Assembly (NCBI GenBank): GCA_049720475.1 | Contig: JBNASH010000035.1 | Location: 84,015 to 148,014, forward strand | Origin: Minisyncoccia bacterium | Lineage (GTDB): Bacteria > Patescibacteriota > Minisyncoccia > UBA6257 > JAAZHW01 | DNA length: 64,000 nt | Direction: 5' to 3' | Shown here: positions 1-63,532 of the stretch, piece after piece | Numbering within the stretch: position 1 is the stretch's first letter | Layout: each line of letters begins with the position of its first letter | The notes under the pieces: generated by a model | What the model was told of the DNA's origin: nothing | The model's database searches: none | What the model saw: the letters and a program-made list of their open reading frames with translations, nothing else | Program-made: the position numbers and the translations under genes

Positions 1-798
1 ATGGTCCGGTTTTTACTTATGATGAAATCGAAAATAGCCATGACTAAAAAAATAAATAAAAAAATTTCGGTTGGTATTTTTGACTTTACTGACTGTGAAG
101 GTTGCCAAGTAAAATTAGTTTCTTTGCGAGAAAAATTTTTGAAACTTGAGGAAAATTTTGAAATTCTTGCTTGGCGTTTAGGTCAAGAAAAGTTCAACCC
201 CGGCCCATATGATATCGCGATTGTTGAAGGAACACCAATTATGCCAGAAGAAGTGGAATTGCTTAAATCCATTCGGGAAAATTCTAAAATTCTTATTGCT
301 TTTGGAACCTGTGCAGCTTTGGGTGGCATTCCCGCCATTTTATCTGAAAAAGAAAGACAATATTGGTACCAAAAAATTTACGGTCCGAATTACAAACCGC
401 GTGGCATTGAAGCCCAACCTCTTTCCGCTTATGTGCCAGTGGATGTAATTATTAACGGCTGTCCAGTTGATGAGAATGAAATTTTAAAAATTTTTGAAGC
501 CTTCATCGCTGGCAAAAAACCTTATCCCTATGATTATCCAGTTTGCTATGACTGTAAAAAAGCCGGCAATGAATGTCGCCTTCTTAAAGGATTGCCTTGT
601 TTAGGACCGATAACTAAAAATGGTTGTGGTGCGATTTGTATTTCCGGTGGTTCAGCCTGTTATGGTTGCTTTGGTCTTCGCGATGGCGCCAACTTTGAAG
701 CTCTTATCAAAATTTTAGAAAAAATCGCCGATAAAAAAACCGTCGCTTTATATCTCTCAATGTTTCACAAAAAAGATATTAAATATGATAACCAATGA
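1..798 (+). CDS. [NiFe] hydrogenase small (delta/HoxY-MvhG-like) subunit; true start probably an internal ATG at 19-24 or 40-42
   Basis: N-terminal CxxC motif (FDFTDCEGCQ) and multiple C-terminal Cys clusters (CYDCKKAGNEC, CGAICISGGSACYGC), typical of Fe-S-carrying small subunits of cytoplasmic group-3 hydrogenases. Its end overlaps the large-subunit start by 14 nt. Confidence 0.75.
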   Translation: MVRFLLMMKSKIAMTKKINKKISVGIFDFTDCEGCQVKLVSLREKFLKLEENFEILAWRLGQEKFNPGPYDIAIVEGTPIMPEEVELLKSIRENSKILIAFGTCAALGGIPAILSEKERQYWYQKIYGPNYKPRGIEAQPLSAYVPVDVIINGCPVDENEILKIFEAFIAGKKPYPYDYPVCYDCKKAGNECRLLKGLPCLGPITKNGCGAICISGGSACYGCFGLRDGANFEALIKILEKIADKKTVALYLSMFHKKDIKYDNQ

Positions 799-1978
799 AT
801 TTATTGCTAAAATTGAAGGTCATGGCAATTTAAAAGTCGATTGGAAGAATAATAAAGTAATTTTGGAGGTGGCTGAGGGAGAAAGATTGTTTGAAGGATT
901 GTTAGTTGGCCGACCAGCTGAAGAAGCCTATTGGGTCACTCCCCGCATTTGTGGTGTCTGTCCAATTGCTCATAATTTAGCTTCTATTTCAGCTTTAGAA
1001 AATGCCGCCCAAATTAAATTATCCGAACCAATGAAACTTTTAAGAGAACTAATGCAATGCGCCCAAATGATCCAAAGCCACGCCCTGCATCTATTTTTCT
1101 TAGCTCTGCCTGATTATCTAGGTATTGATCGCGGCACAGAATTAAAAAATAAAAATCCGAAAGCCTTCCAAAATGCTTTAGCTTTAAAGGCTTTAGCTGA
1201 TAATTTAGCTTTTGTTTCTGCTGGACGTAATGTCCATCCAACAACTCCAACTCTCGGTGGCTTCAATAAATTGCCAACTCAAAAAGATTTGAAAAGAATG
1301 CTCTCGGAATTAGAAAAAACCGAAGAAATTACTCATTGGCTGGAAAAATTCTGTGAAAATTTAAATTATCCAGATTTAAAAGTTGATTTGGAATTAGTAG
1401 CGATTAAAAACGATTTAATTTATTCTAGCAAAGGTGAAACAGTATCAATAAATGATTACAAAACAGCAATTGAAGAAGAAATTAGAGAGTTTTCAACTGC
1501 CAAGTTTTCTAAATTCCATGGCCGAGAAGTAATGGTTGGCGCTTTGGCGCGTTTATATTTCGAAAAATCCCAAAATAAAAATTTGGATTTTCAAAATCCA
1601 TTTCATAACAACCTTGCTCAAGCCATCGAAATTAAACTCTATCATCAAAAAGCCCAAAAAATTATTAAAAAACTTTTGGAATTTGATCTAAAAAACATTC
1701 CTCATCAAGCTAAGCCAAATTGGCAAAAAAACTCTCAAGGTATTGGTGCAGTAGAAGCACCTCGCGGCGGCCTCTATCATGAAATTCACGTTGATGAAAA
1801 AGGCTTTATTACTTACATAAACATCATTACGCCAACCGTCCAAAATCTTACTTCAATCGAAAAAACCGCTCAATTACTTATTGAACAACACGCCTCTCGA
1901 TCGCAAAAAGAAAAAGAAAAATTGCTTAATATGCTGGTAAGGGCTTATGACCCTTGCATCACTTGTTCAGTGCACTAA
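785..1978 (+). CDS. [NiFe] hydrogenase large (catalytic) subunit
   Basis: N-terminal Ni-Fe ligand motif R-I-C-G-V-C-P-I-A-H (RxCGxCxxxH) and C-terminal DPCITCSVH (DPCxxCxxH). The protein ends exactly at the His with no C-terminal extension. Confidence 0.85.
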   Translation: MITNEFIAKIEGHGNLKVDWKNNKVILEVAEGERLFEGLLVGRPAEEAYWVTPRICGVCPIAHNLASISALENAAQIKLSEPMKLLRELMQCAQMIQSHALHLFFLALPDYLGIDRGTELKNKNPKAFQNALALKALADNLAFVSAGRNVHPTTPTLGGFNKLPTQKDLKRMLSELEKTEEITHWLEKFCENLNYPDLKVDLELVAIKNDLIYSSKGETVSINDYKTAIEEEIREFSTAKFSKFHGREVMVGALARLYFEKSQNKNLDFQNPFHNNLAQAIEIKLYHQKAQKIIKKLLEFDLKNIPHQAKPNWQKNSQGIGAVEAPRGGLYHEIHVDEKGFITYINIITPTVQNLTSIEKTAQLLIEQHASRSQKEKEKLLNMLVRAYDPCITCSVH

Positions 1979-2005
1979 AATTGATATTCTCTAAAAAAAG
2001 AAAAG

Positions 2006-2030
2006 GGCTCGCCTAGCGAGCCTTTTGTTT
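2006..2030. terminator. bidirectional intrinsic terminator (GGCTCGC-cta-GCGAGCC + TTTTGTTT)
   Basis: Perfect 7-bp GC-rich stem followed by a T-run, sitting between convergent genes. The stop codon and C-terminus of the minus-strand ORF lie inside it. Confidence 0.5.
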
Positions 2031-2681
2031 ATTTTTCTTATTGAAATTTCTCAGAGCTTCTTTTGTCAACTGCAATAATTTATCTGCTTCTTTTTGAGAA
2101 ATTTTTTCAATAACTTTGCGGAAATGAACAGTCACCCAATCGCCTTCTTTTAAATCTAAATCTAGCTCATTTTGAACAATCAATTCAACTTTCGGACCCA
2201 AAGTCAATTTGTCCTTTTTTAATGTTTTCGTAATTGGTTGATAAATTACCCACCACTCCCTATTTGAAATTTTGTCGCTAATTTTAGCTGGATGAACAAC
2301 ACAATCATCAACTAACTCTTCAACAATTTGATGCATTTTTATCTGAATGATAGGAATCAAAGTCGAAGCATTATGAATCCACTCCTCTCCTTTTAATTCT
2401 GGATTGCCTTTCCAATAAAAAGAAACGACTTCTTCATCAAATGGTTCTTTGTGATTTAACTGGGCGATTCGGCGATAAAAATCATAACTTAAAAGGTTTT
2501 TTAAAATTTTTTCAATTCTTTCCGCTTCACCTTTGCCATGACGGAAATAATCATACAAATCATTGGAAAATTTAAGCAAACGAGCTTTCTCGCAAACATA
2601 AGAATATTTAGCAGCTAATTTTAATCCTTCCCCTTCCATTTTATCCCTCCTTTTTAAAGAGCTTTTAGTGATGGCTGTCAT
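2013..2681 (-). CDS. hypothetical protein downstream of and overlapping hypC (17-nt overlap)
   Basis: 222-aa ORF co-directional and translationally coupled with hypC. No recognisable motif. Confidence 0.4.
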   Translation of the reverse strand: MTAITKSSLKRRDKMEGEGLKLAAKYSYVCEKARLLKFSNDLYDYFRHGKGEAERIEKILKNLLSYDFYRRIAQLNHKEPFDEEVVSFYWKGNPELKGEEWIHNASTLIPIIQIKMHQIVEELVDDCVVHPAKISDKISNREWWVIYQPITKTLKKDKLTLGPKVELIVQNELDLDLKEGDWVTVHFRKVIEKISQKEADKLLQLTKEALRNFNKKNKQKAR

Positions 2682-2895
2682 GATGACTGGCCTTTATAAA
2701 ATTTAATATTTTTTTCGCTTCTTTCAAGGGTAGTTTGTGAATCGCCAAATCGCCGTGGGCCAAAACAAAATCGCCTTTTTTTGGTTTTTTCTCTTTTATT
2801 AAAGAAATATCGACAATATGAGTGTGACCTTCTCCTTGAACTACTGCCTTATCCTTTTCAATTTTTATAATTCTCATTGGTGTTGCCAAGCACAT
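2665..2895 (-). CDS. hypC: hydrogenase maturation factor HypC/HupF
   Basis: Begins MCLATP (the canonical MC(L/I)A(I/V)P HypC N-terminus with the essential Cys2), and its small size (~76 aa) fits HypC. Confidence 0.8.
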   Translation of the reverse strand: MCLATPMRIIKIEKDKAVVQGEGHTHIVDISLIKEKKPKKGDFVLAHGDLAIHKLPLKEAKKILNFIKASHHDSHH

Positions 2896-10567: not shown

Positions 10568-11869
10568 TTAAGGCGTAACTTTTGGAATGGCTGTCGGTGT
10601 AATCGATGGTGTTGGTGAATTCGTTTGTTCAGAAATTGGTGGATTTAAACTATAAAGCGTTTTTGTTTTTTCATCGTAGAAGAAAAGGGTTTTATCATCT
10701 TTGCTTATTTTTATATCAGTGATTTGGAAAGTATTGTTATTTAATAATTGCGCCTCCATTGTTTCCAAATTAATCTGATAAAGCATTTCGTCAATTGACA
10801 CTACTCCCATATAATAAGCATCGGGCCAAACACCAGAAAAAACCGGATTAACAAAAATACTGCAGTAAAGAATGGGTGAAGAATGGGCAAAAACACATTT
10901 CTCCGGCAGAGTAATATTAGGAAAATCTGCCAAAACATAACCATCTTTATTAATTAATTGTAATTTTGGACTCACTCCATTAGCACTGGTAGTGAAGAGT
11001 AAACCGTATTGTCCCTTATCATCCCACTTTAAAATTAAACCGTAACCACTCACAAAAGGACTAAATATTTTATTTTTTAAATCAAATTTCAAAACAGTTG
11101 TCTCGCTTAAGCCACTGGGTTTTTGCGTAATATAAGCGGTCGTGGTGGTTGGCCAGAGTAAATTAATATCACTTGCCGCTTTAAAATCCATTAAAATTTT
11201 CCGATTGGCTAAATTTTTATCTAACTGGGCTAAATAGTTTGTTTCCTTAAAATTCTCTTGGTAATAAAGTGGGCTATCAGAATAATAGTAAAGTAAGTTT
11301 TCGCCATCAGGGGACCAAGCAGCAGTTTTAATATAAAGGTCCAAATTTTTAACTTCGCGCGTTTGAATATCTAAAATGCTAAAAGATGGTTTAGTTGCAC
11401 CTTCTGCCACATATTTAATTAAAATTTTATCTTTTGCTGATGGTTGAACAGATAAAACGTTGTTAAAATTAACGCCCAAATCTCTTTTTTCTTCTTTAAT
11501 CTGATTCTGGGAAAAATCAATTTCAAATAATCCTTCTTTGGTTAGATATTGCAACGTTGAAGTCCCACTCTGCCAAAAAGCCAAAATTTCTTTATTAATT
11601 AAGTTCCGCAAAATTGGCTGCTGTTTAATATTGGTAGCGGAAGTACCAGAAGTTTGCTCTGGCAAAAATGGGGTGGCAGTAATTGTAGGCAAGCCAACGC
11701 CTCCGCCTTCTTGCTGTATTTCCTCTCCAATTTGACTCGCTGGTTTTAAATAAAACCAGTAAAAAACAAAGGCAATAATACCTAAGATAAGAAGAATTAA
11801 AATTGTAGTTAAAATCATTTTTTTCATATGTTTATTCTGGTAATTTAATCGCCTACTGACTTCTGACAA
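10568..11869 (-). CDS. secreted/anchored beta-propeller (TolB/WD40-like repeat) protein with Pro/Thr-rich C-terminus
   Basis: N-terminal TM/signal. Repeated short beta-strand units (e.g. AAWSPDGENLLYYYSD). C-terminal TNSPTPSITPTAIPKVTP. Confidence 0.5.
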   Translation of the reverse strand: MSEVSRRLNYQNKHMKKMILTTILILLILGIIAFVFYWFYLKPASQIGEEIQQEGGGVGLPTITATPFLPEQTSGTSATNIKQQPILRNLINKEILAFWQSGTSTLQYLTKEGLFEIDFSQNQIKEEKRDLGVNFNNVLSVQPSAKDKILIKYVAEGATKPSFSILDIQTREVKNLDLYIKTAAWSPDGENLLYYYSDSPLYYQENFKETNYLAQLDKNLANRKILMDFKAASDINLLWPTTTTAYITQKPSGLSETTVLKFDLKNKIFSPFVSGYGLILKWDDKGQYGLLFTTSANGVSPKLQLINKDGYVLADFPNITLPEKCVFAHSSPILYCSIFVNPVFSGVWPDAYYMGVVSIDEMLYQINLETMEAQLLNNNTFQITDIKISKDDKTLFFYDEKTKTLYSLNPPISEQTNSPTPSITPTAIPKVTP

Positions 11870-12483
11870 ACTGAATATAATTTATTACATACTTCTATAC
11901 ATTTAGATGATAGATCCGAACTAACTTTGCTACAAGCGTCCCTAATACAACTTTCTCTCAGCTTGGACAGGTTTTCTTGAATTTTTTTATCTTCTTCTTC
12001 CTTTAATTGTTTATCGCTTAATTTTGGTTGAATTCCTGGTAAATTTAATTTTACTAAATCAGGGTTAATGGTTCTTAAAATCAAAACCGATCCGAGCAGT
12101 AAAACCAAACCAATAATCGCATCTTTAATTTGCTCACGCGCTTCTTTTTGTTTTGAAGTATTATCAGCGCTTGTTGCATATTGGATACCCGCAATAGTAA
12201 TTTGAATGATGACCGCAATTACGCCCGCATAAACTGCTAACTTATACAATCCAGAAAGATAGTCAGCCGGAGTTGAAGGACAACTGGGCAAAAATGGTTC
12301 TAGAGAAATTTCCATACAGCGCGAACCACCAAACCAATCTTCCGAAGTAGAAGCACTTGTATTGGTAGAAGCTGCATTACTAACTGTCTGGGGAGCGACT
12401 TGAACAGCCTGTTGAGCTAAAGCCACATTACTTAAAACAATGAACAAGAAAGTAAATAAAATATAGGGGTTTATTTTTTTCAT
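11845..12483 (-). CDS. VirB2/TrbC-like pilin candidate (signal peptide + two hydrophobic helices)
   Basis: Signal peptide ending ALAQQA. Two TM helices (LYKLAVYAGVIAVIIQITIAGIQYA and AIIGLVLLLGSVLIL) separated by a short polar loop, the T4SS pilin topology. It is adjacent to the VirB4-like gene. Confidence 0.35.
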   Translation of the reverse strand: MKKINPYILFTFLFIVLSNVALAQQAVQVAPQTVSNAASTNTSASTSEDWFGGSRCMEISLEPFLPSCPSTPADYLSGLYKLAVYAGVIAVIIQITIAGIQYATSADNTSKQKEAREQIKDAIIGLVLLLGSVLILRTINPDLVKLNLPGIQPKLSDKQLKEEEDKKIQENLSKLRESCIRDACSKVSSDLSSKCIEVCNKLYSVCQKSVGD

Positions 12484-13202
12484 TTTAAATTAATATTTAT
12501 ACTCGCGCTTGCTCTTATAATAATATCTCTTAAATCTTCAATGGTTAATTGAATTGAATAGTTTTTCTCTCCTTGCTCGGCTTTAGGCAGTATCAATATT
12601 CGCTCGTTATCTAAATCTGACACTCTTTCATTATTAATCCGCCACATATAATGCAATTGATTTGGATCATCACCGCCAAAGAAAAATGGCACAGCCTCAA
12701 GTTGTAATAAATCCCCAGTTGTTGAATATTGACCTTGAAGTATTTCTTTCTCTCCTAAAACTCTAAAGAAAATGGCTGGTTGCGCTAAATTAATTGTTAT
12801 TGTTTTTTCAATCGGCTGACTTAAAACTGAAGTTAAAATTGAAACTTTTACAGTATAAGCGGTTTTATCAAAATCTTTTAGACGAAATCTAATTGATTTT
12901 AGACCCTGTCCTTCTCCTATTAAATTATCATTTACATACCATCGATATGTCCATTGATCAGAATTCAAATAACCTCCACTTTTTGAAGAATAGATGAATG
13001 GTTGAACTGATGTTTTAATAATCGCAAAGCGAGCTGGCAACGCCTTTCCTTGATATTCAACCGGAACCATTCCATCACTTTCCCAAGTTAAATAAATAAA
13101 GTTTTCGGGGGTTTTTGAAGATTGCGCAAAAGCAAAACTTCCCCCTATCATTAAGAGTGCCAACGCTAATAAAATTGAATTTTTTTGTTTATTGTTCTTC
13201 AT
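12480..13202 (-). CDS. secreted hypothetical protein (signal peptide)
   Basis: MKNNKQKNSILLALALLMIGGSFAFAQ signal. ATGA start/stop overlap with its neighbour. Confidence 0.5.
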   Translation of the reverse strand: MKNNKQKNSILLALALLMIGGSFAFAQSSKTPENFIYLTWESDGMVPVEYQGKALPARFAIIKTSVQPFIYSSKSGGYLNSDQWTYRWYVNDNLIGEGQGLKSIRFRLKDFDKTAYTVKVSILTSVLSQPIEKTITINLAQPAIFFRVLGEKEILQGQYSTTGDLLQLEAVPFFFGGDDPNQLHYMWRINNERVSDLDNERILILPKAEQGEKNYSIQLTIEDLRDIIIRASASININLK

Positions 13203-13683
13203 TTTTTTGCGAACTAAGATTATTCGCCGTCTCTAATGCCTTGCCCGCTGCCGCTAATTCAGGTTTTATTTTCCCAGCGGCTTGTAATCCTTTTGCCGCC
13301 ATCTTTAATTTTTCCGGATGTTTTTGTTGGAGATATAAAAAGACGATTGCGGCAGTTTTTGTAGGTAAAACTCCAACAAAAGGGATTAAATCAACGGCAC
13401 TAGCCAACAACATAAATTCTCCTCGCAACCCCTTCATAAACAACCATAAAGTCAACGAACCACCACACAAAATATTTACCGCCCAACTAATAATTGTCCC
13501 AAATCCTGTTAACTGGAGCGCATCAACCAAATCTGATAAAACAGCAGCTGGCAATGGCCACATAAAGAATTCAATTGCAGAAATTTTCGGACCTGGAGGC
13601 GATTCATCAATTTCCTCTTCAGCTGACATTGTCCCTTCTTCCTCTTCTTGATTTAATTGTAAATCTTCATCTTCATAGGCCAT
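13189..13683 (-). CDS. polytopic membrane protein with an acidic N-terminus (T4SS-cluster component)
   Basis: Acidic cytoplasmic N-terminus followed by 3-4 hydrophobic helices. Confidence 0.45.
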   Translation of the reverse strand: MAYEDEDLQLNQEEEEGTMSAEEEIDESPPGPKISAIEFFMWPLPAAVLSDLVDALQLTGFGTIISWAVNILCGGSLTLWLFMKGLRGEFMLLASAVDLIPFVGVLPTKTAAIVFLYLQQKHPEKLKMAAKGLQAAGKIKPELAAAGKALETANNLSSQKNEEQ

Positions 13684-13721
13684 ATATATTATAAATAAAT
13701 TTTATTAAAAGTTTAAGGTTA

Positions 13722-15521
13722 TTAGGAAAGGCTTTTATCAAACATTTCCTTGGCTTTTTGGATTTGAAGCATTTGAGCAGGATTGGTGGTAATAATTTGA
13801 TCCTCAGTATAAGAAGCAATTACTTTAATAGCCACGTGTTTTGCCCCAGCGAAAAATATCCCTTCTCCCACATTAGCGCTTAAAAGCAGCTGTTTTTCTG
13901 CTTCGGTTAAATTAAATGTTTCAGCCACTACATCAATGGAGGCGGGCGATTGTTTTAAGAGTAATTGCAAAGCGGAGTTTGTAATAATAGGTTTGCCTTG
14001 GGGAGATTTAATAAAATCCTCCACATCTTGGGTAATAGTTGTAACACCCATATGATACTTGCGACAACGTTTGACTAAGCCAAAAAGAAAATCTGCACCA
14101 GCTGGATATTTCATCATCCACCAAGCTTCATCAACAATTAAAATTCTTTTCTTCATTTGGGAACGGATTAAATTCCAAATAAAGTTTAAAACCATATACA
14201 TAGCAATTGGCCGTAGTTCATCTTCTAAATCGCGAAGGGCAAAAACAACTAAACGATTATCAATATTAACATTGGTTGGATTGTTAAGAAAACCAGCAAA
14301 GGTGCCCCGGGTAAACTTAAATAATCGATCTGCCAATTCAGTACCTCCTTCCATATTTTCTAACACAGCCTGCAGATCTTCCATTAACGGCGGGGTTAAT
14401 TTTGTAAAATCGCTTTCGGGTGTAATATCGCGTGAAGCATAAGTTTCAGCAATTGCTCTATCTAAAATCCCAATCTGCTCTGAAGTTAAATCTCCCAACA
14501 TAATTCTTAATAAGCCGGTAAGATTCAAAATGTTTGATTTTAAAACCTCTTCCGGCGTTTCATCTGGCCGCGGAGGCGGTAAATCAAAAGGATTAATGTG
14601 ATGCTCAGAAGTTAAGGAAATATTTATAAACGAGCCACCAACGGTCTCTGCTAAATGTTGATATTCTTTTTCTGGATCAATAATAATTACGTCTGTTCCC
14701 ATCATCAAAGAACGCAAAACTTCTAATTTGCAGAAATAGGATTTACCACTACCTGATTTCGCGAAAATCACCATATTGCCATTTTCCAAAGAAAATCTAT
14801 CAAAAATAATTAAGCTATTATTATGGCGATTAATACCATAAAAAATTCCTTTGTCCGAAGTTAAATCTAGCGAAATAAAAGGGAAAAAGGTGGAAACCGG
14901 TGAAGAATTTAAAGTAGAATGAACATTTAAATAATCTTTATTCAAAGGAAAACAAGACAACAAACCCTCTGACTGTTGGAAAAGCGCAGGTTTTATATAA
15001 ACCATTCTCCCCTCTAAGAAATTAATGATTTTTTGCTCAATGGCTTCTAATTCTTTAAGATTAGAGGCGTAAATAGTTATATAAACTCCTACCTCAAATA
15101 ATTTCTCACGTGCTTGTTGCAAAGCATCACGTAAATTTTCTAAATCTTGATAAGCAGTTTCTAAAATCGGGTCTCTAACCAATCCTTTTTCTTCTCTTTC
15201 CAAAAGTTGGGCTTCCACTTGAGCGACCTTCCTTCTTAATTGTTTCAAAGCCACTCCAGTATCAACGGGATGGATAAAAATGGAAACATCAACTGTTTGG
15301 TCAATGTTTAAAACTGGCGAAAACCAACCAGAAGTAAGATATCGAGGATAAGAAATAATATAGTGGGTTTTAGTATATAAATCGCCCAATCGGACGTAGG
15401 TTGATTCAATTTCTAAAGCCGGCGGTGTTAAAATTTCTCTAATAGTTTGCAACCCCGTCCGGGACGGTTTGGGAATTTTTATTTCTTCATCTTTTTTTTG
15501 TGAAAATGGTAAAATTGGCAT
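13722..15521 (-). CDS. VirB4/TrbE/CagE-family T4SS ATPase, C-terminal 599-aa portion (conserved domain + Walker A/B)
   Basis: Walker A FAKSGSGKS and a Walker B ILIVDEAWWM (the DEAW motif typical of VirB4). An N-terminal YTKTHYIISYP...W region like the CagE_TrbE_VirB domain. Confidence 0.8.
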   Translation of the reverse strand: MPILPFSQKKDEEIKIPKPSRTGLQTIREILTPPALEIESTYVRLGDLYTKTHYIISYPRYLTSGWFSPVLNIDQTVDVSIFIHPVDTGVALKQLRRKVAQVEAQLLEREEKGLVRDPILETAYQDLENLRDALQQAREKLFEVGVYITIYASNLKELEAIEQKIINFLEGRMVYIKPALFQQSEGLLSCFPLNKDYLNVHSTLNSSPVSTFFPFISLDLTSDKGIFYGINRHNNSLIIFDRFSLENGNMVIFAKSGSGKSYFCKLEVLRSLMMGTDVIIIDPEKEYQHLAETVGGSFINISLTSEHHINPFDLPPPRPDETPEEVLKSNILNLTGLLRIMLGDLTSEQIGILDRAIAETYASRDITPESDFTKLTPPLMEDLQAVLENMEGGTELADRLFKFTRGTFAGFLNNPTNVNIDNRLVVFALRDLEDELRPIAMYMVLNFIWNLIRSQMKKRILIVDEAWWMMKYPAGADFLFGLVKRCRKYHMGVTTITQDVEDFIKSPQGKPIITNSALQLLLKQSPASIDVVAETFNLTEAEKQLLLSANVGEGIFFAGAKHVAIKVIASYTEDQIITTNPAQMLQIQKAKEMFDKSLS

Positions 15522-15524
15522 ATT

Positions 15525-16232
15525 TTATTCTATGGTTGGTTCTTCTAATTGTTCTAGCTCGGCTGTAATAGCCAATCCGACCCTTTCTTGTTTTTCAGGA
15601 TTATAAAAATTGTAATACAACTCAATTAATTCCGGGGTTTTAAGACGAATGGCATTCAACCCCATTGCTTTCAAAGCTGAAATAACAGCAGCCACCCGGT
15701 GGTATAGTTGCATTTTGTTATTAACAAATTGCGTCTCTTTATCAACTTCTTGTTGGGGAACGCTGCTCTTTTGTTTACCAAAAGGCAATGGCAACTTTTG
15801 AAAAATTTGTGTTAATGGATTAGCACTACTTGTTGCAGAAATAAGAGAAGGAGAATAAGGTACAACAACATAAAATCTCTTTGTCATAATATTAGTGCTT
15901 TTGACAAGCTCATCTATAAAATTGTAATATTCCTGAATCTGCAATTTTAGAAGCTCATTTTTTTCATTCTTTTCCAACTCTTTAATTTTGTTTAAATAAT
16001 TATCCAGATTAATTTTTCTAGAATGGACAAGGATTTGCAATGGAAAATCTAAAGAATTTAAAAGGCTTTGGTAGGCATTCAAAACTATCTCCTGCTCGGT
16101 TTCTGATAACAAATCAAAGTTAACACCCGACACCATCAAAACGGCTCTTAACGAACCATCTTTTAAAATAACGCAATCTTCTTTGATGGTTTCAATATCT
16201 ATAAATTTTTCAGTGGAGGCAGTACTAATCAT
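15525..16232 (-). CDS. probable N-terminal segment of the same VirB4-like ATPase, in the same frame and separated by one TAA stop + AAT from the downstream ATG
   Basis: Frame arithmetic: both ORF ends are congruent mod 3, with a 3-nt gap. The VILKDGSLRAVLMVSGVNFDLLSETEQEIVLNAYQSLLNSLDFPLQI pattern resembles VirB4/TraE N-termini. Combined length ~835 codons matches a full VirB4. Confidence 0.5.
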   Translation of the reverse strand: MISTASTEKFIDIETIKEDCVILKDGSLRAVLMVSGVNFDLLSETEQEIVLNAYQSLLNSLDFPLQILVHSRKINLDNYLNKIKELEKNEKNELLKLQIQEYYNFIDELVKSTNIMTKRFYVVVPYSPSLISATSSANPLTQIFQKLPLPFGKQKSSVPQQEVDKETQFVNNKMQLYHRVAAVISALKAMGLNAIRLKTPELIELYYNFYNPEKQERVGLAITAELEQLEEPTIE

Positions 16233-16636
16233 AATTGTTTATCTTTTTCTTCTAATTCTTTAGCAATTTTTTCCAATTCTTCGACCGTTAATCTTTTTTT
16301 CTCTTCTTGTTGAGAAACAACTTTTTTCGTTTCTTTTAATAAAGGTTTTGTTGCTTGGGGTTTTTTCCAAGTATATAAGCGCGGATTAATATAAAATTTT
16401 AAGGCATTAATCAAAACTTTGGAAAGGGGTTGTTCATTAACTTTCACAAACGCTAAAGCAATCGAAAATAAAGCAATGACAATACTAACTAAAATCCACA
16501 AACCCTGAGTGAGCACAGAATTCAAAATAAAAATCAAAACCCCGCCCCCTCCCAAAAATAAAAATTGACGAAGGGTTAATGGCCCAACAATTTTACTTTC
16601 TAAATTAATAAATTGTGGTACTTGAGTAGTAGGCAT
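16229..16636 (-). CDS. small two-TM membrane protein (VirB3/PrgI-like candidate)
   Basis: 135 aa. Two adjacent hydrophobic helices near the N-terminus. Immediately upstream of and overlapping (ATGA) the VirB4 N-terminal segment, the usual VirB3 position. Confidence 0.4.
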   Translation of the reverse strand: MPTTQVPQFINLESKIVGPLTLRQFLFLGGGGVLIFILNSVLTQGLWILVSIVIALFSIALAFVKVNEQPLSKVLINALKFYINPRLYTWKKPQATKPLLKETKKVVSQQEEKKRLTVEELEKIAKELEEKDKQL

Positions 16637-16646
16637 ATTTTAATTC

Positions 16647-17906
16647 CTAAAATTTTAACTTTCTTAAATCAATAACATTTTCCGCCGGAATATCTGCTGT
16701 TGTCTCATTTTTAGATTCAACTTTTTCTTCTTGTTTCGGTTCTTCATCTTTCGGTATGAAAGATTTATTTTCTGGAGAAGGCGTCTGTTTGGCTTGTATC
16801 TCTTCTTGTTTCGATTCTAACTTTTCTTCTGGTGGGATTGGGGTTGTTTCTTTCATTTCTGAAGAAACAGCTTCTTTTGGTAGGAACGCTTCAACAATGG
16901 GGATTGGATTGACATCTTGAGGTGTTTGAAACGTTGAAGGCTCTATTTTTTGCTCTGTTATTGGTGGCGGTGGAGCAATTGGCTCACTTGATAATTTAAT
17001 ATCTGGTTCTTGTTTCTTTTCAACAAATTCTCTTTGTTCAAAAATTGGTTTTTCTATAGTACTAATCGGCTTGATTTCTTCTTCATGCTTTAATTCAATT
17101 TCTGAAACCACTTTTTCTTTCGCGGGTTTTACATCTTCAAAGCTAATCCGCCAAGGGGAAGATTCTTCCAAAACTGGTTTAAATTCCTCTTCTTTGCCAA
17201 TAATCATTGGCTCTGTTGGTTTTTGAGTCTCTTGTGTGGGTTTTTTAAATTTGAAAAACGAAAGAAAAGTTCGCTTTGGTTTTTCTTCTTGTTGAGTTGT
17301 TGAGGTTGATTCTTGGATCGGAGGTTGAACAACAGCATCTAATGGCTTGGGTTCTTCTTTTTTGCTAGTCTCTGATAATGGTTGAATTCCGATATTTAAT
17401 GTGCCAAGTGGTTCTTTTTGAGTTTCAATATTTTCTGGTGTTTTAGCTATTGATTCTTCTGTTTCGGCTATTTCCACTTTTTTTAATTCCGGCTGGCTTT
17501 CTTTTTCTAATTTTTCCATTGCTGAAAAACGATGATAAATTTTTTCTAAATCTTCTTTAAAAGGCGAGATGAATTTAGATTCTATTTTTAAAGCAATCTC
17601 CTTCGCCAATACCGGATGAATACCCAAATCTATTAATTTTCCACTTAAAAAAGCAAGGAAAACACTAGGATTTAATTTACCAATAAAAACATCGTGGGTT
17701 GCTCCGACCATCGCATCAAATTGATCATCGTTTAAATTATTTTGTCTTTCCAACTCTAAAAAATAGTCAGCCAATTCATTGCCTAAAAGTATTTTTTGAA
17801 TTTTATCAGGCAACTTATCTAATCTTTGCTGCATTTCTTCTAATTCATTATCCATCTCTTTGCTTTCGTTATTAGAATTTTTTACTGGAATATTTGTATC
17901 ATTCAT
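16647..17906 (-). CDS. acidic, E/K/P-rich low-complexity (probably disordered) protein
   Basis: Composition read directly; no TM segment. Confidence 0.5.
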   Translation of the reverse strand: MNDTNIPVKNSNNESKEMDNELEEMQQRLDKLPDKIQKILLGNELADYFLELERQNNLNDDQFDAMVGATHDVFIGKLNPSVFLAFLSGKLIDLGIHPVLAKEIALKIESKFISPFKEDLEKIYHRFSAMEKLEKESQPELKKVEIAETEESIAKTPENIETQKEPLGTLNIGIQPLSETSKKEEPKPLDAVVQPPIQESTSTTQQEEKPKRTFLSFFKFKKPTQETQKPTEPMIIGKEEEFKPVLEESSPWRISFEDVKPAKEKVVSEIELKHEEEIKPISTIEKPIFEQREFVEKKQEPDIKLSSEPIAPPPPITEQKIEPSTFQTPQDVNPIPIVEAFLPKEAVSSEMKETTPIPPEEKLESKQEEIQAKQTPSPENKSFIPKDEEPKQEEKVESKNETTADIPAENVIDLRKLKF

Positions 17907-62067: not shown

Positions 62068-62110
62068 AAAGCCCCTCGACCTTTTAGTCTCGGGGCTTGT
62101 GTTTTTTTCA
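62068..62110. terminator. bidirectional terminator (GCCCC..GGGGC hairpin flanked by T-runs on both strands)
   Basis: Read directly. Separates the AT-rich fdx gene from the GC-richer minus-strand gene. Confidence 0.5.
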
Positions 62111-63532
62111 AAACCTAAGGAGGATTCCCCCTTGGATTCGCCAAGGGGAAATTTCAAGAGGAAGAATATTCGTGTTCGTGTTGCTGAGCAGCCGGCGGCC
62201 CTGAACAAAAAGAGGACCGAGCTCCAAGGAAAGCCCTATGTAAGGGCATGTTGAAGTGGTCCTAAATTTTTCAACCACTTCAACACAATTCTCCTTGGTT
62301 AAAGCCTCCTCTTTGAACGGATACAACTTTGTGTAAGTTGTATCCGTGATCCTGGTTCCCCTGTGGACCCTCCACAAGATTCCACCCTCCGGATCAATAT
62401 TCAAATTCTTCCCCAACTGCAGCTGGTATTTAATCCCAGCTGTGAACTCTTGAATCCGGACATTCTCCCGGATCAAGAGCTCGTTCCAATCTCGATGGAG
62501 TCCCACATAATAAACATATGTGGGAGGACAAGTGGTAGTCGAACTACTGCCATATTCCCCCAACAGCCTCATTTCATCAATTACCATACTCTCTTTCCCT
62601 TCATATTGGGAAAAAGAGTATTTTCCCACTTGGAAATAAGATCCACCAATGAACAGGTTTTTCCATATCTCTAATTCTACCTCCACATAGAAGGGAAAAT
62701 TTTTTCCCTTCTGAAAATTCACGACATTATGCTGCCAGAGTAAAACACTCTGGCCGAGTGCAAAAGGCACGCCATTACTCTGCGTATAGTACCACATGGC
62801 GGTCCCGTCTTCGCAATAGAAGACGGAATCACCTTGAGGAACAAGAGAAAAGAAGTCAAAGCGCTCAGTGGAATAATCAACGGAGTCTGGCAATTTCATC
62901 CCTGCCCAACCGGCCCCCACTTTAATTTTTACCGTGGGAGACCACGTCTTTACTGTCGGAACTGGCTTCGGCGTTAAAACCGGCTGAGGTTGAGGTTGAG
63001 GAGCTGGCGGCTGAACTGGAGGAATTATTACCGGTTGCTCTTTTTGTTCTTTCTTCTCTTCAGCAACTGGTTTCACCGGCGCTTCTCTCATTTCGAGAAG
63101 CGCGATATTACCGCACCGAACAGGAATAATGAAGGTAAATTCCTTCCCTTCCACTTCCAACTTGAACTGGTACGCCTGGAAGGACTCTATTCCTGCCCAG
63201 CGCAAACCTTTAAGCAATCTCCCTTTTGAATACATCATCCAAAACATTTTCTGACCTGGCTGAACTTCAACCAGATCAAGCCGTAACTGATCGAGCTGCT
63301 CATAGAGAGCAGCATAGGTCGCTTCCCCCAAGGCGCCGCCGGGGAAGTAATCCAGGGCCCTACCTACCTCTTCATTCACCTTTTTCAAGAGGTTCTTCAC
63401 CTCTTGGGGTGATTGAAGATAGGGGCTCAACGGGGCCCTTCCTAACTGTCTTAATTCCAACTCCTGTCCAACTGCCGCTGTCACCAGCGACAGCACCAGA
63501 CAAAAAACCAAAAAAATTCCTCGTTTTTTCAT
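62108..63532 (-). CDS. secreted protein with Pro-rich linker and C-terminal beta-rich domain ending ...GGILLRF (outer-membrane beta-barrel-like C-terminal signature); compositionally foreign
   Basis: Signal peptide MKKRGIFLVFCLVLSLVTAAVGQ. A PVIIPPVQPPAPQPQPQPVLTPKPVP linker. Alternating hydrophobic C-terminus with terminal Phe. Codon usage (CTG, CCG, GAG, CTC) and G+C visibly higher than the rest of the window. Strong SD AAGGAGG 7 nt before the ATG. Confidence 0.6.
   Translation of the reverse strand: MKKRGIFLVFCLVLSLVTAAVGQELELRQLGRAPLSPYLQSPQEVKNLLKKVNEEVGRALDYFPGGALGEATYAALYEQLDQLRLDLVEVQPGQKMFWMMYSKGRLLKGLRWAGIESFQAYQFKLEVEGKEFTFIIPVRCGNIALLEMREAPVKPVAEEKKEQKEQPVIIPPVQPPAPQPQPQPVLTPKPVPTVKTWSPTVKIKVGAGWAGMKLPDSVDYSTERFDFFSLVPQGDSVFYCEDGTAMWYYTQSNGVPFALGQSVLLWQHNVVNFQKGKNFPFYVEVELEIWKNLFIGGSYFQVGKYSFSQYEGKESMVIDEMRLLGEYGSSSTTTCPPTYVYYVGLHRDWNELLIRENVRIQEFTAGIKYQLQLGKNLNIDPEGGILWRVHRGTRITDTTYTKLYPFKEEALTKENCVEVVEKFRTTSTCPYIGLSLELGPLFVQGRRLLSNTNTNILPLEISPWRIQGGILLRF

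Follow-up and report, generated by a model that had tools for sequence, protein, structure and literature searches.

Most [NiFe]-hydrogenase large subunits carry a C-terminal extension, and the textbook route of their maturation ends with a nickel-dependent proteolytic checkpoint. The 64,000-nucleotide stretch of DNA analysed here (from contig JBNASH010000035.1 of the Minisyncoccia bacterium assembly GCA_049720475.1, and referred to as the window) opens with the genes of a [NiFe]-hydrogenase whose large subunit stops at the histidine of its DPCxxCxxH motif. This raises the question of how such an enzyme could be matured, and of whether the missing tail is an artefact, a defect or a property of its group. 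The comparative data presented below make it quite probable that the gene belongs to a tail-less, protease-less four-subunit enzyme of group 3b, in which Hyp-dependent metal insertion proceeds without cleavage following a lineage-wide joint loss of tail and protease. The missing tail would be a lineage-wide simplification, and no peculiarity or defect of this particular gene.

The large subunit ends in ...RAYDPCITCSVH (AYDPCITCSVH), followed directly by TAA, so that the statement of the first-pass annotation of the window that no extension follows the histidine is borne out. The in-frame codons from the stop onward are TAA-AAT-TGA, and the remaining two frames close within 5-12 codons. No residue beyond the histidine is found in any of the 120 nearest homologues (57-100% identity), whose named members are Patescibacteria, Parcubacteria and similar. 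In the DNA of five relatives, the last 11 codons differ synonymously and TAA or TAG stands at the same position, while among 55 tail-less related loci the stop codon is TAA in 30, TAG in 17 and TGA in 8. The possibility that a frameshift, a premature stop or an assembly error has cut a normally extended subunit has as its sole prior ground the general prevalence of extensions among [NiFe] large subunits, and no evidence in its favour turned up. Because the position of the stop is conserved in all 120 close homologues, which come from independent samples, and in the 55 related loci, with three different stop codons, and because the alternative frames have no coding potential and no more than 35 nt separate the stop from a terminator and from the end of a convergent gene, such an artefact has next to no probability. 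A check for an extension hidden by a frameshift, based on three-frame translation past the stop and on the DNA of relatives, revealed none. An alternative genetic code with UGA as a sense codon is irrelevant, as the stop in question is TAA and the relatives use TAA, TAG and TGA. The large subunit had also been described as short (397 aa); this holds in comparison with the 428-aa archaeal enzymes, but not within its own clade, whose members mostly have 391-429 aa.

As for the type of enzyme, the large subunit matches PF00374 with 130 bits against a cut-off of 25.8, and the N-terminal ligand motif PRICGVCPIAH (residues 53-63), the motif DPCITCSVH (389-397) and the EAPRGGLYH motif are all intact. 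Its top matches in the PDB are the alpha subunit of Pyrococcus furiosus sulfhydrogenase I (SHI) and HyhL of Thermococcus kodakarensis (217 bits, E about 4e-63, full length); the scores against other group 3 enzymes are 160 bits for MvhA (3c), 124 for HoxH (3d) and 91 for FrhA (3a). Among the NCBIfam models, those for the alpha subunits of Pyrococcus sulfhydrogenases 1 and 2 (HydA/ShyA; NF040832/NF040828) match best, but the scores of 238 bits (cut-off 880) and 220 bits (cut-off 700) are far from equivalog level. On its sequence, the large subunit is accordingly assigned to a divergent subfamily with no orthologue-level match to P. furiosus HydA/ShyA. The open reading frame (ORF) of the small subunit is open from the first base of the window, the ATG at 40 being its likely start, and overlaps the start of the large-subunit gene by 14 nt; its top NCBIfam matches are the sulfhydrogenase delta subunits ShyD/HydD. 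In locus L001, a 5.1 kb twin contig whose large subunit is 100% identical to that of the window, the small-subunit product has 252 aa.

The first-pass annotation had taken the two genes for a bare small/large pair, a view which the related loci correct. The gene order in L001, by domain, is Fer4_22, FAD_binding_6/NAD_binding_1/DHODB_Fe-S_bind, Oxidored_q6 and NiFeSe_Hases, and it is shared by L002 and L005-L007 (L002-L007 being relatives at 61-77% identity). Genes for a HydB-like Fe-S beta subunit and a HydG-like FAD/NAD(P)/[2Fe-2S] gamma subunit lie directly upstream in L001-L007; both fall outside the window, whose start cuts the operon. Because the beta and gamma genes are present upstream in L001 and in the relatives, the four-subunit layout of group 3b can be assigned, and the predicted enzyme is a divergent, sulfhydrogenase-like cytoplasmic [NiFe]-hydrogenase of group 3b type with four subunits.

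The distribution of the tail-less state was surveyed by searching the representatives of 50%-identity clusters exhaustively with HMMER. None of the closest 19 clusters (41-54% identity) has a tail. Only the more distant representatives include some with tails of 4-14 residues, most commonly with 7-9 residues and the form FLxVxWxx, and a few distant representatives are fusions that run on after the histidine for more than 130 residues. A rough neighbour-joining tree places the query inside one contiguous block of 35 tail-less leaves, with about eight smaller tail-less places elsewhere in the family; on this tree, the tail-less state would have arisen roughly nine times across the 3b-like family. 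A cultured actinobacterium, Ellagibacter isourolithinifaciens, is represented in one tail-less cluster, which comprises 1858 sequences. Tail-less large subunits are encoded in all loci with a Patescibacteria or candidate phyla radiation (CPR) label, whether derived from GTDB or among the earlier loci, and the sister enzymes found in DPANN archaea (Woesearchaeota, Nanoarchaeota, Pacearchaeota) and in several further phyla have retained their tails. Down to 34% identity, the clade shows no change in the four cysteine ligands of Ni-Fe or in 39 invariant columns. The N-terminal leader, which in HyhL is the HypA-binding region, has a median length of 12 residues in tail-less and 14 in tailed enzymes, a slight difference that is confounded by start-codon calling.

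The missing tail can thus hardly be called unusual for an enzyme of this type, as the first-pass annotation had done: being tail-less is the rule for the whole Patescibacteria clade, the relatives also lack the extension, which makes this a normal group property, and the tail of the characterised 3b enzymes is a vestige of only four residues. To lose these four as well would be a minor change. In a 2025 review, the hydrogenases named as being without the C-terminal peptide are those of groups 2b, 2d, 4c and 4e only (PMC12134894), and the tail-less 3b clade is missing from that list. Literature searches on hydrogenase maturation in CPR, Patescibacteria or Parcubacteria and on the extension or endopeptidase of group 3b found, in the library covered, no paper on a tail-less 3b enzyme and none on hyp genes in these bacteria.

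The fate of the protease was followed in 80 loci around related large subunits, fetched from GTDB species representatives, to which earlier loci were added; the scored set consists of 84 related loci with flanks of about 10 kb, 55 of them tail-less and 29 tail-bearing, the tails having 4-171 residues. The loci were subjected to ORF calling and clustering, recurrent clusters were named with Pfam, and profiles were built. Beside tailed 3b-type large subunits, in loci labelled as DPANN or other archaea, Chloroflexi and Dehalococcoidia, a protein of about 125 aa was repeatedly found, in which Gly, Asp, Asp and His residues are invariant (Table 1). Twelve of the 14 members of this family match PF01750 (HycI), mostly weakly (best E 2e-7), the member shown in full being below the gathering cut-off; in the PDB, the best match is to an endopeptidase of hydrogenase maturation. 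When six-frame ORFs were searched with the profile of this family and with a second HycI profile, a HycI-family protease gene or a fused protease-like tail was found in 18 of the 29 tail-bearing loci and in none of the 55 tail-less ones (Fisher p = 3.6e-11). The short peptide removed by a HycI/HybD-type protease, a trait of the characterised 3b enzymes, has no counterpart here: no residue follows the histidine, and no protease gene was found in the window. Tail and protease gene are missing together, and the pattern suggests that the tail and its dedicated protease were lost together, in an unambiguous direction.

Some of the tailed relatives show other arrangements. The large subunits at L072:7769-9508 and L089:9992-11770, as well as representatives P0215, P0238, P0269 and P0151, extend for 134-202 residues past the histidine; in L072 and L089, both Aminicenantes, the extra segment has protease-like motifs (FIGVG/LGIGN...DD), so that the large subunit looks as if it were fused to its own maturation endopeptidase. 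Further fusions were seen at L021:407-2209, L036:3422-5179 and L037:5464-7158 and in representatives P0134, P0136, P0144, P0162 and P0168; the classical checkpoint, in which the peptide prevents premature docking of the small subunit, cannot apply to a fusion of the L021/L036/L037 type. In L009, the large subunit (11222-12508, minus strand) has a 7-residue tail, with genes for a mini-protease and for DUF6390 beside it, and a 587-aa protein (12534-14297, minus strand) joins a pyridine-nucleotide-disulfide oxidoreductase domain to a small-subunit domain; no separate beta or gamma gene was seen in that locus.

With regard to the remaining maturation machinery, neither a protease gene nor hypA, hypB, hypD, hypE or hypF was found in the window, either by Pfam on ORFs of at least 100 aa or by clade-specific profiles on six-frame ORFs of at least 40 aa, in agreement with the first-pass annotation. 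The HypC/HupF-family chaperone starts with Met-Cys, has a length of 76 aa (the family has about 75-90 aa) and passes the cut-offs of both PF01455 (61.3 bits against 28.5) and TIGR00074 (50.4 against 48). Its gene is present, as annotated, but does not lie right downstream of the hydrogenase gene, since a DUF6390 gene that the first pass had overlooked sits between the two. Both genes are on the minus strand, convergent with the hydrogenase gene, and the 5' end of the DUF6390 gene overlaps the 3' end of hypC by 17 nt. The hairpin between the convergent genes can be read on both strands, with an 11-pair stem and then a T-run on the plus strand, and a 7-pair stem and then a T-run on the minus strand.

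Elsewhere in the clade, hypC-hypD-hypE-hypF clusters enclose tail-less large subunits in L019, L028, L042, L045 and L067 (Moraniibacteriota, Parcubacteria and others), and a short hypA is present in 25 of the 55 tail-less loci. The short HypA-like protein (about 87-112 aa; L041:1881-2156 and 24 further loci) adjoins the tail-less large subunits; its L041 member matches only the first ~70 positions of PF01155, and the gene is absent from the window and the closest relatives. The HypF proteins of the Patescibacteria hyp clusters have only 380-450 aa (L045:7818-9029, L028:7525-8688, L042:7458-8816 and L067:5892-7028, all on the minus strand), and that of L045, the one scanned, has only the Kae1-like C-terminal domains, the acylphosphatase, zinc-finger and YrdC domains being unmatched in the same ORF. 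HypF in the DPANN locus L039 has 716 aa.

The DUF6390 protein matches PF19927 with 43.4 bits (cut-off 25), although only at profile positions 142-243, and scores 184 bits against a profile built from the related loci; Met15, at window position 2639, is an alternative start. Its residues 127-209 align to HypC residues 2-70 (hhalign, probability 97.9%), which brings Cys127 into register with the essential Cys2 of HypC, and His186 with its conserved His; C127 and H186 are invariant in 30 DUF6390 sequences. The predicted architecture is an N-terminal helical domain of about 120 aa, a HypC-like oligonucleotide/oligosaccharide-binding (OB) barrel and a C-terminal helix. The AlphaFold2 model (mean predicted local distance difference test score, pLDDT, 87; predicted template modelling score, pTM, 0.83) has T. 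kodakarensis HypC (2z1c) as its top Foldseek match, with no PDB match at E <= 0.001. In the subclade of the window, the protein is a reduced version, without the PHHNFHV segment and the CGPD cysteine of the family.

A total of 149 members of the family could be detected, distributed over Patescibacteria, Chloroflexia, Thermomicrobiaceae and Vicinamibacterales; their neighbours are group 3b enzymes in Patescibacteria and DPANN archaea and group-1-like uptake enzymes in Chloroflexota. The gene adjoins hypC in 21 of the 55 tail-less loci and in 4 of the 29 tail-bearing ones (all four labelled archaeal), and directly follows hypC in group-1-like uptake-hydrogenase clusters with a HycI protease (L008, L010). 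Because it is present in protease-bearing loci and absent near 34 of the 55 tail-less ones, DUF6390 is not specifically tied to the loss of the tail, and it is a general companion of HypC and hydrogenase genes and no dedicated substitute for the tail. A literature search for DUF6390 found no mention of it in the library covered. We tentatively suggest, as a possibility we would not yet favour, that DUF6390 could be an unrecognised, widespread [NiFe]-hydrogenase maturation factor, a paralogue of HypC with a new helical domain before a predicted iron-binding Cys/His pair, which would work with HypC and, in hyp-poor Patescibacteria loci, may assume part of the checkpoint role of the lost peptide.

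How, then, would the enzyme of the window be matured? The region holds delta and alpha, the two structural genes that close the four-gene operon of a predicted NAD(P)-linked, cytoplasmic enzyme of 3b type, with hypC and the DUF6390 gene convergent downstream. The catalytic subunit would be synthesised at its final length, the histidine that is exposed by proteolysis in classical enzymes being encoded here by the last codon. Fe(CN)2CO would be delivered via the HypC/HypD/HypE/HypF route and nickel by a HypA-type chaperone, with HypD, HypE, HypF and HypA presumably encoded elsewhere in the genome of the organism, and the active site would close without an endopeptidase checkpoint, tail and dedicated protease having been lost together at the base of a large clade. 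Because the subunit has no C-terminal peptide, its maturation would involve no endoproteolytic step, and the protease-independent maturation put forward by the first-pass annotation is backed by the comparative evidence, i.e. the lack of the peptide and the co-loss of tail and protease. Hydrogenase activity is predicted for the enzyme, and its physiological direction would probably be the disposal, as H2, of reductant from fermentation.

Several points weigh against this reading. The correlation between tail and protease is not phylogenetically independent, as the tail-less loci are mostly from Patescibacteria and the protease-bearing ones mostly from DPANN archaea, and the protease profiles were built from few sequences. 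No hypD, hypE, hypF, hypA or hypB was found within 10 kb in the closest relatives (L002, L006, L007 and L011-L016, with L012, L013 and L016 representing Nealsonbacteria, Niyogibacteria and Tagabacteria, respectively), and we infer the Hyp-dependence of the organism of the window from more distant Patescibacteria. Moreover, the Escherichia coli HypC paralogue HybG fails to bind a genetically truncated large subunit (PMC6769069), and therefore chaperone recognition must differ in the tail-less clade.

If the hyp genes were missing altogether, the locus could be a relic, i.e. a decaying or non-catalytic hydrogenase in a reduced symbiont genome without Hyp machinery, its missing tail being a sign of lost function. 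The absence of hypD, hypE, hypF, hypA and hypB from the 64 kb window and from the 10 kb flanks of the closest relatives would fit, as would the generally small size of Patescibacteria genomes. Decay, however, is difficult to reconcile with the retention of all metal ligands and of the 39 invariant columns down to 34% identity, with the synonymous nature of the changes in the last codons, and with the conservation of four-subunit synteny and hypC over Patescibacteria lineages bearing many candidate-phylum labels. Other tail-less Patescibacteria enzymes adjoin hypCDEF, and the retention of hypC would make little sense without HypD; a relic is therefore very unlikely. It is also conceivable that DUF6390 does in trans what peptide and protease do in cis, holding the apo-large subunit open together with HypC, so that its release would be the checkpoint. 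The position of the gene, which in the window as well as in 21 of the 55 tail-less loci lies between the hydrogenase gene and hypC, and the combination of a HypC-like domain that has the Cys and His of HypC with an extra helical domain lacking a PDB match at E <= 0.001 would suit such a role. The same gene, however, accompanies the HycI-encoding group-1-like clusters of L008 and L010 and tail-bearing DPANN loci with a protease (L039, L071), while 34 tail-less loci do without it nearby, which makes this explanation unlikely. Insertion without cleavage, following the joint loss of tail and protease, is the reading we retain.

Table 1. Coordinates of the hydrogenase region in the window and of the endopeptidase family in related loci
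Feature	Position	Strand	Evidence or remark
Small (delta) subunit, [NiFe]-hydrogenase group 3b type	40..798	+	PF01058, 79 bits
Large (alpha) subunit, 397 aa, final residue the His of DPCITCSVH	785..1978	+	PF00374
Terminator-like hairpin, readable on both strands	2002..2026		Between the convergent hydrogenase and DUF6390 genes
DUF6390 protein, 222 aa	2013..2681	-	PF19927, 43 bits; PF01455 weakly
HypC/HupF-family maturation chaperone, 76 aa, N-terminus MCLATP	2665..2895	-	PF01455, TIGR00074
Divergent endopeptidase family, ~125 aa	L023:1233-1607, L034:6171-6611, L039:11300-11665, L055:8610-8984 and 10 further loci		

Beyond the hydrogenase region, the window has the usual features of a Patescibacteria genome, with about 33% G+C and genes for a type-IV-secretion-like cluster, RtcB, FtsH, LeuRS, LigA, IscS/NifU, RNase P RNA and tmRNA. 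Between 3478 and 5809 there are four to five small ORFs (122-157 aa) with no Pfam match, and Pfam-less ORFs of similar size occupy the matching position in L002, the relative at 77% identity. The type-IV-secretion-like cluster (10568-17906, minus strand; type IV secretion system pilin, TraG-type ATPase and PrgI) includes several Pfam-less ORFs, and its part near the hydrogenase operon, an unannotated ORF of ~420 aa followed by the pilin gene, is conserved in L002. At the far end, a 474-aa protein with an apparent N-terminal signal sequence, a proline-rich stretch and no Pfam family is encoded at 62108-63532 (minus strand), in a segment with 43.5% G+C. This GC-rich end of the window (62-64 kb) was considered as ribosomal RNA, which was ruled out; the segment may be foreign DNA or an assembly join.

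A tail-less, protease-less 3b enzyme departs genuinely, though only modestly, from a well-known type. The textbook exceptions given in reviews are limited to sensor, CooH-type and Ech-type enzymes, and the tail-less 3b clade widens them, in that both peptide and protease would be dispensed with by a very large, environmentally abundant clade of soluble 3b enzymes and by scattered cultured bacteria. The tail-less Patescibacteria enzymes and their tailed DPANN sisters with an adjacent protease form a natural comparison set for the role of the peptide. From a practical point of view, the production of H2 in heterologous systems would require one accessory gene fewer with tail-less 3b operons. As a linked gene open to direct testing, the DUF6390 gene offers a concrete candidate for a missing maturation accessory, and a more novel lead than the loss of the tail.

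Among known systems, the closest are P. furiosus sulfhydrogenase I (HydBGDA) and T. kodakarensis Hyh (HyhBGSL), which are likewise cytoplasmic and have the same L1/L2 ligand motifs and the same beta-gamma-delta-alpha operon, the beta subunit being an Fe-S protein and the gamma subunit binding FAD and NAD(P). Their large-subunit precursors have 428 aa, with the histidine at 424 and a 4-residue tail that is removed by a protease (PMC7654741); residue 424 is also the last one in the mature P. furiosus chain as deposited. The large subunit of the window, in contrast, has no tail and no protease gene nearby, and is ~30 aa shorter owing to internal deletions. The endopeptidases HycI, HybD and HoxW find their likeness in the ~125-aa neighbour of the tailed sister enzymes of DPANN archaea and Chloroflexi, with its invariant Asp, Asp and His, whereas no such gene occurs in the window or beside any tail-less relative. 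Compared with the chaperones HypC, HybG, HupF and HoxL, the HypC of the window is an ordinary representative of the family. In DUF6390, the Cys and His of HypC are preserved in the C-terminal domain, and an added segment is known from another HypC paralogue, HupF (PMC12134894); in HupF, however, the extra segment is C-terminal, while in DUF6390 the conserved Cys is internal (residue 127), after a helical domain of ~120 aa.

The tail-less sensors (2b, 2d), CooH (4c) and Ech (4e) resemble the enzyme of the window in that their large subunits end at or near the conserved histidine and mature without an endopeptidase (PMC12134894; PMC7654741), and an engineered tail-less membrane-bound hydrogenase (MBH) is active (PMC7654741). 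The sensors, CooH and Ech belong, however, to other phylogenetic groups and have regulatory or membrane-bound energy-converting partners, whereas the enzyme of the window is of the soluble four-subunit 3b type.

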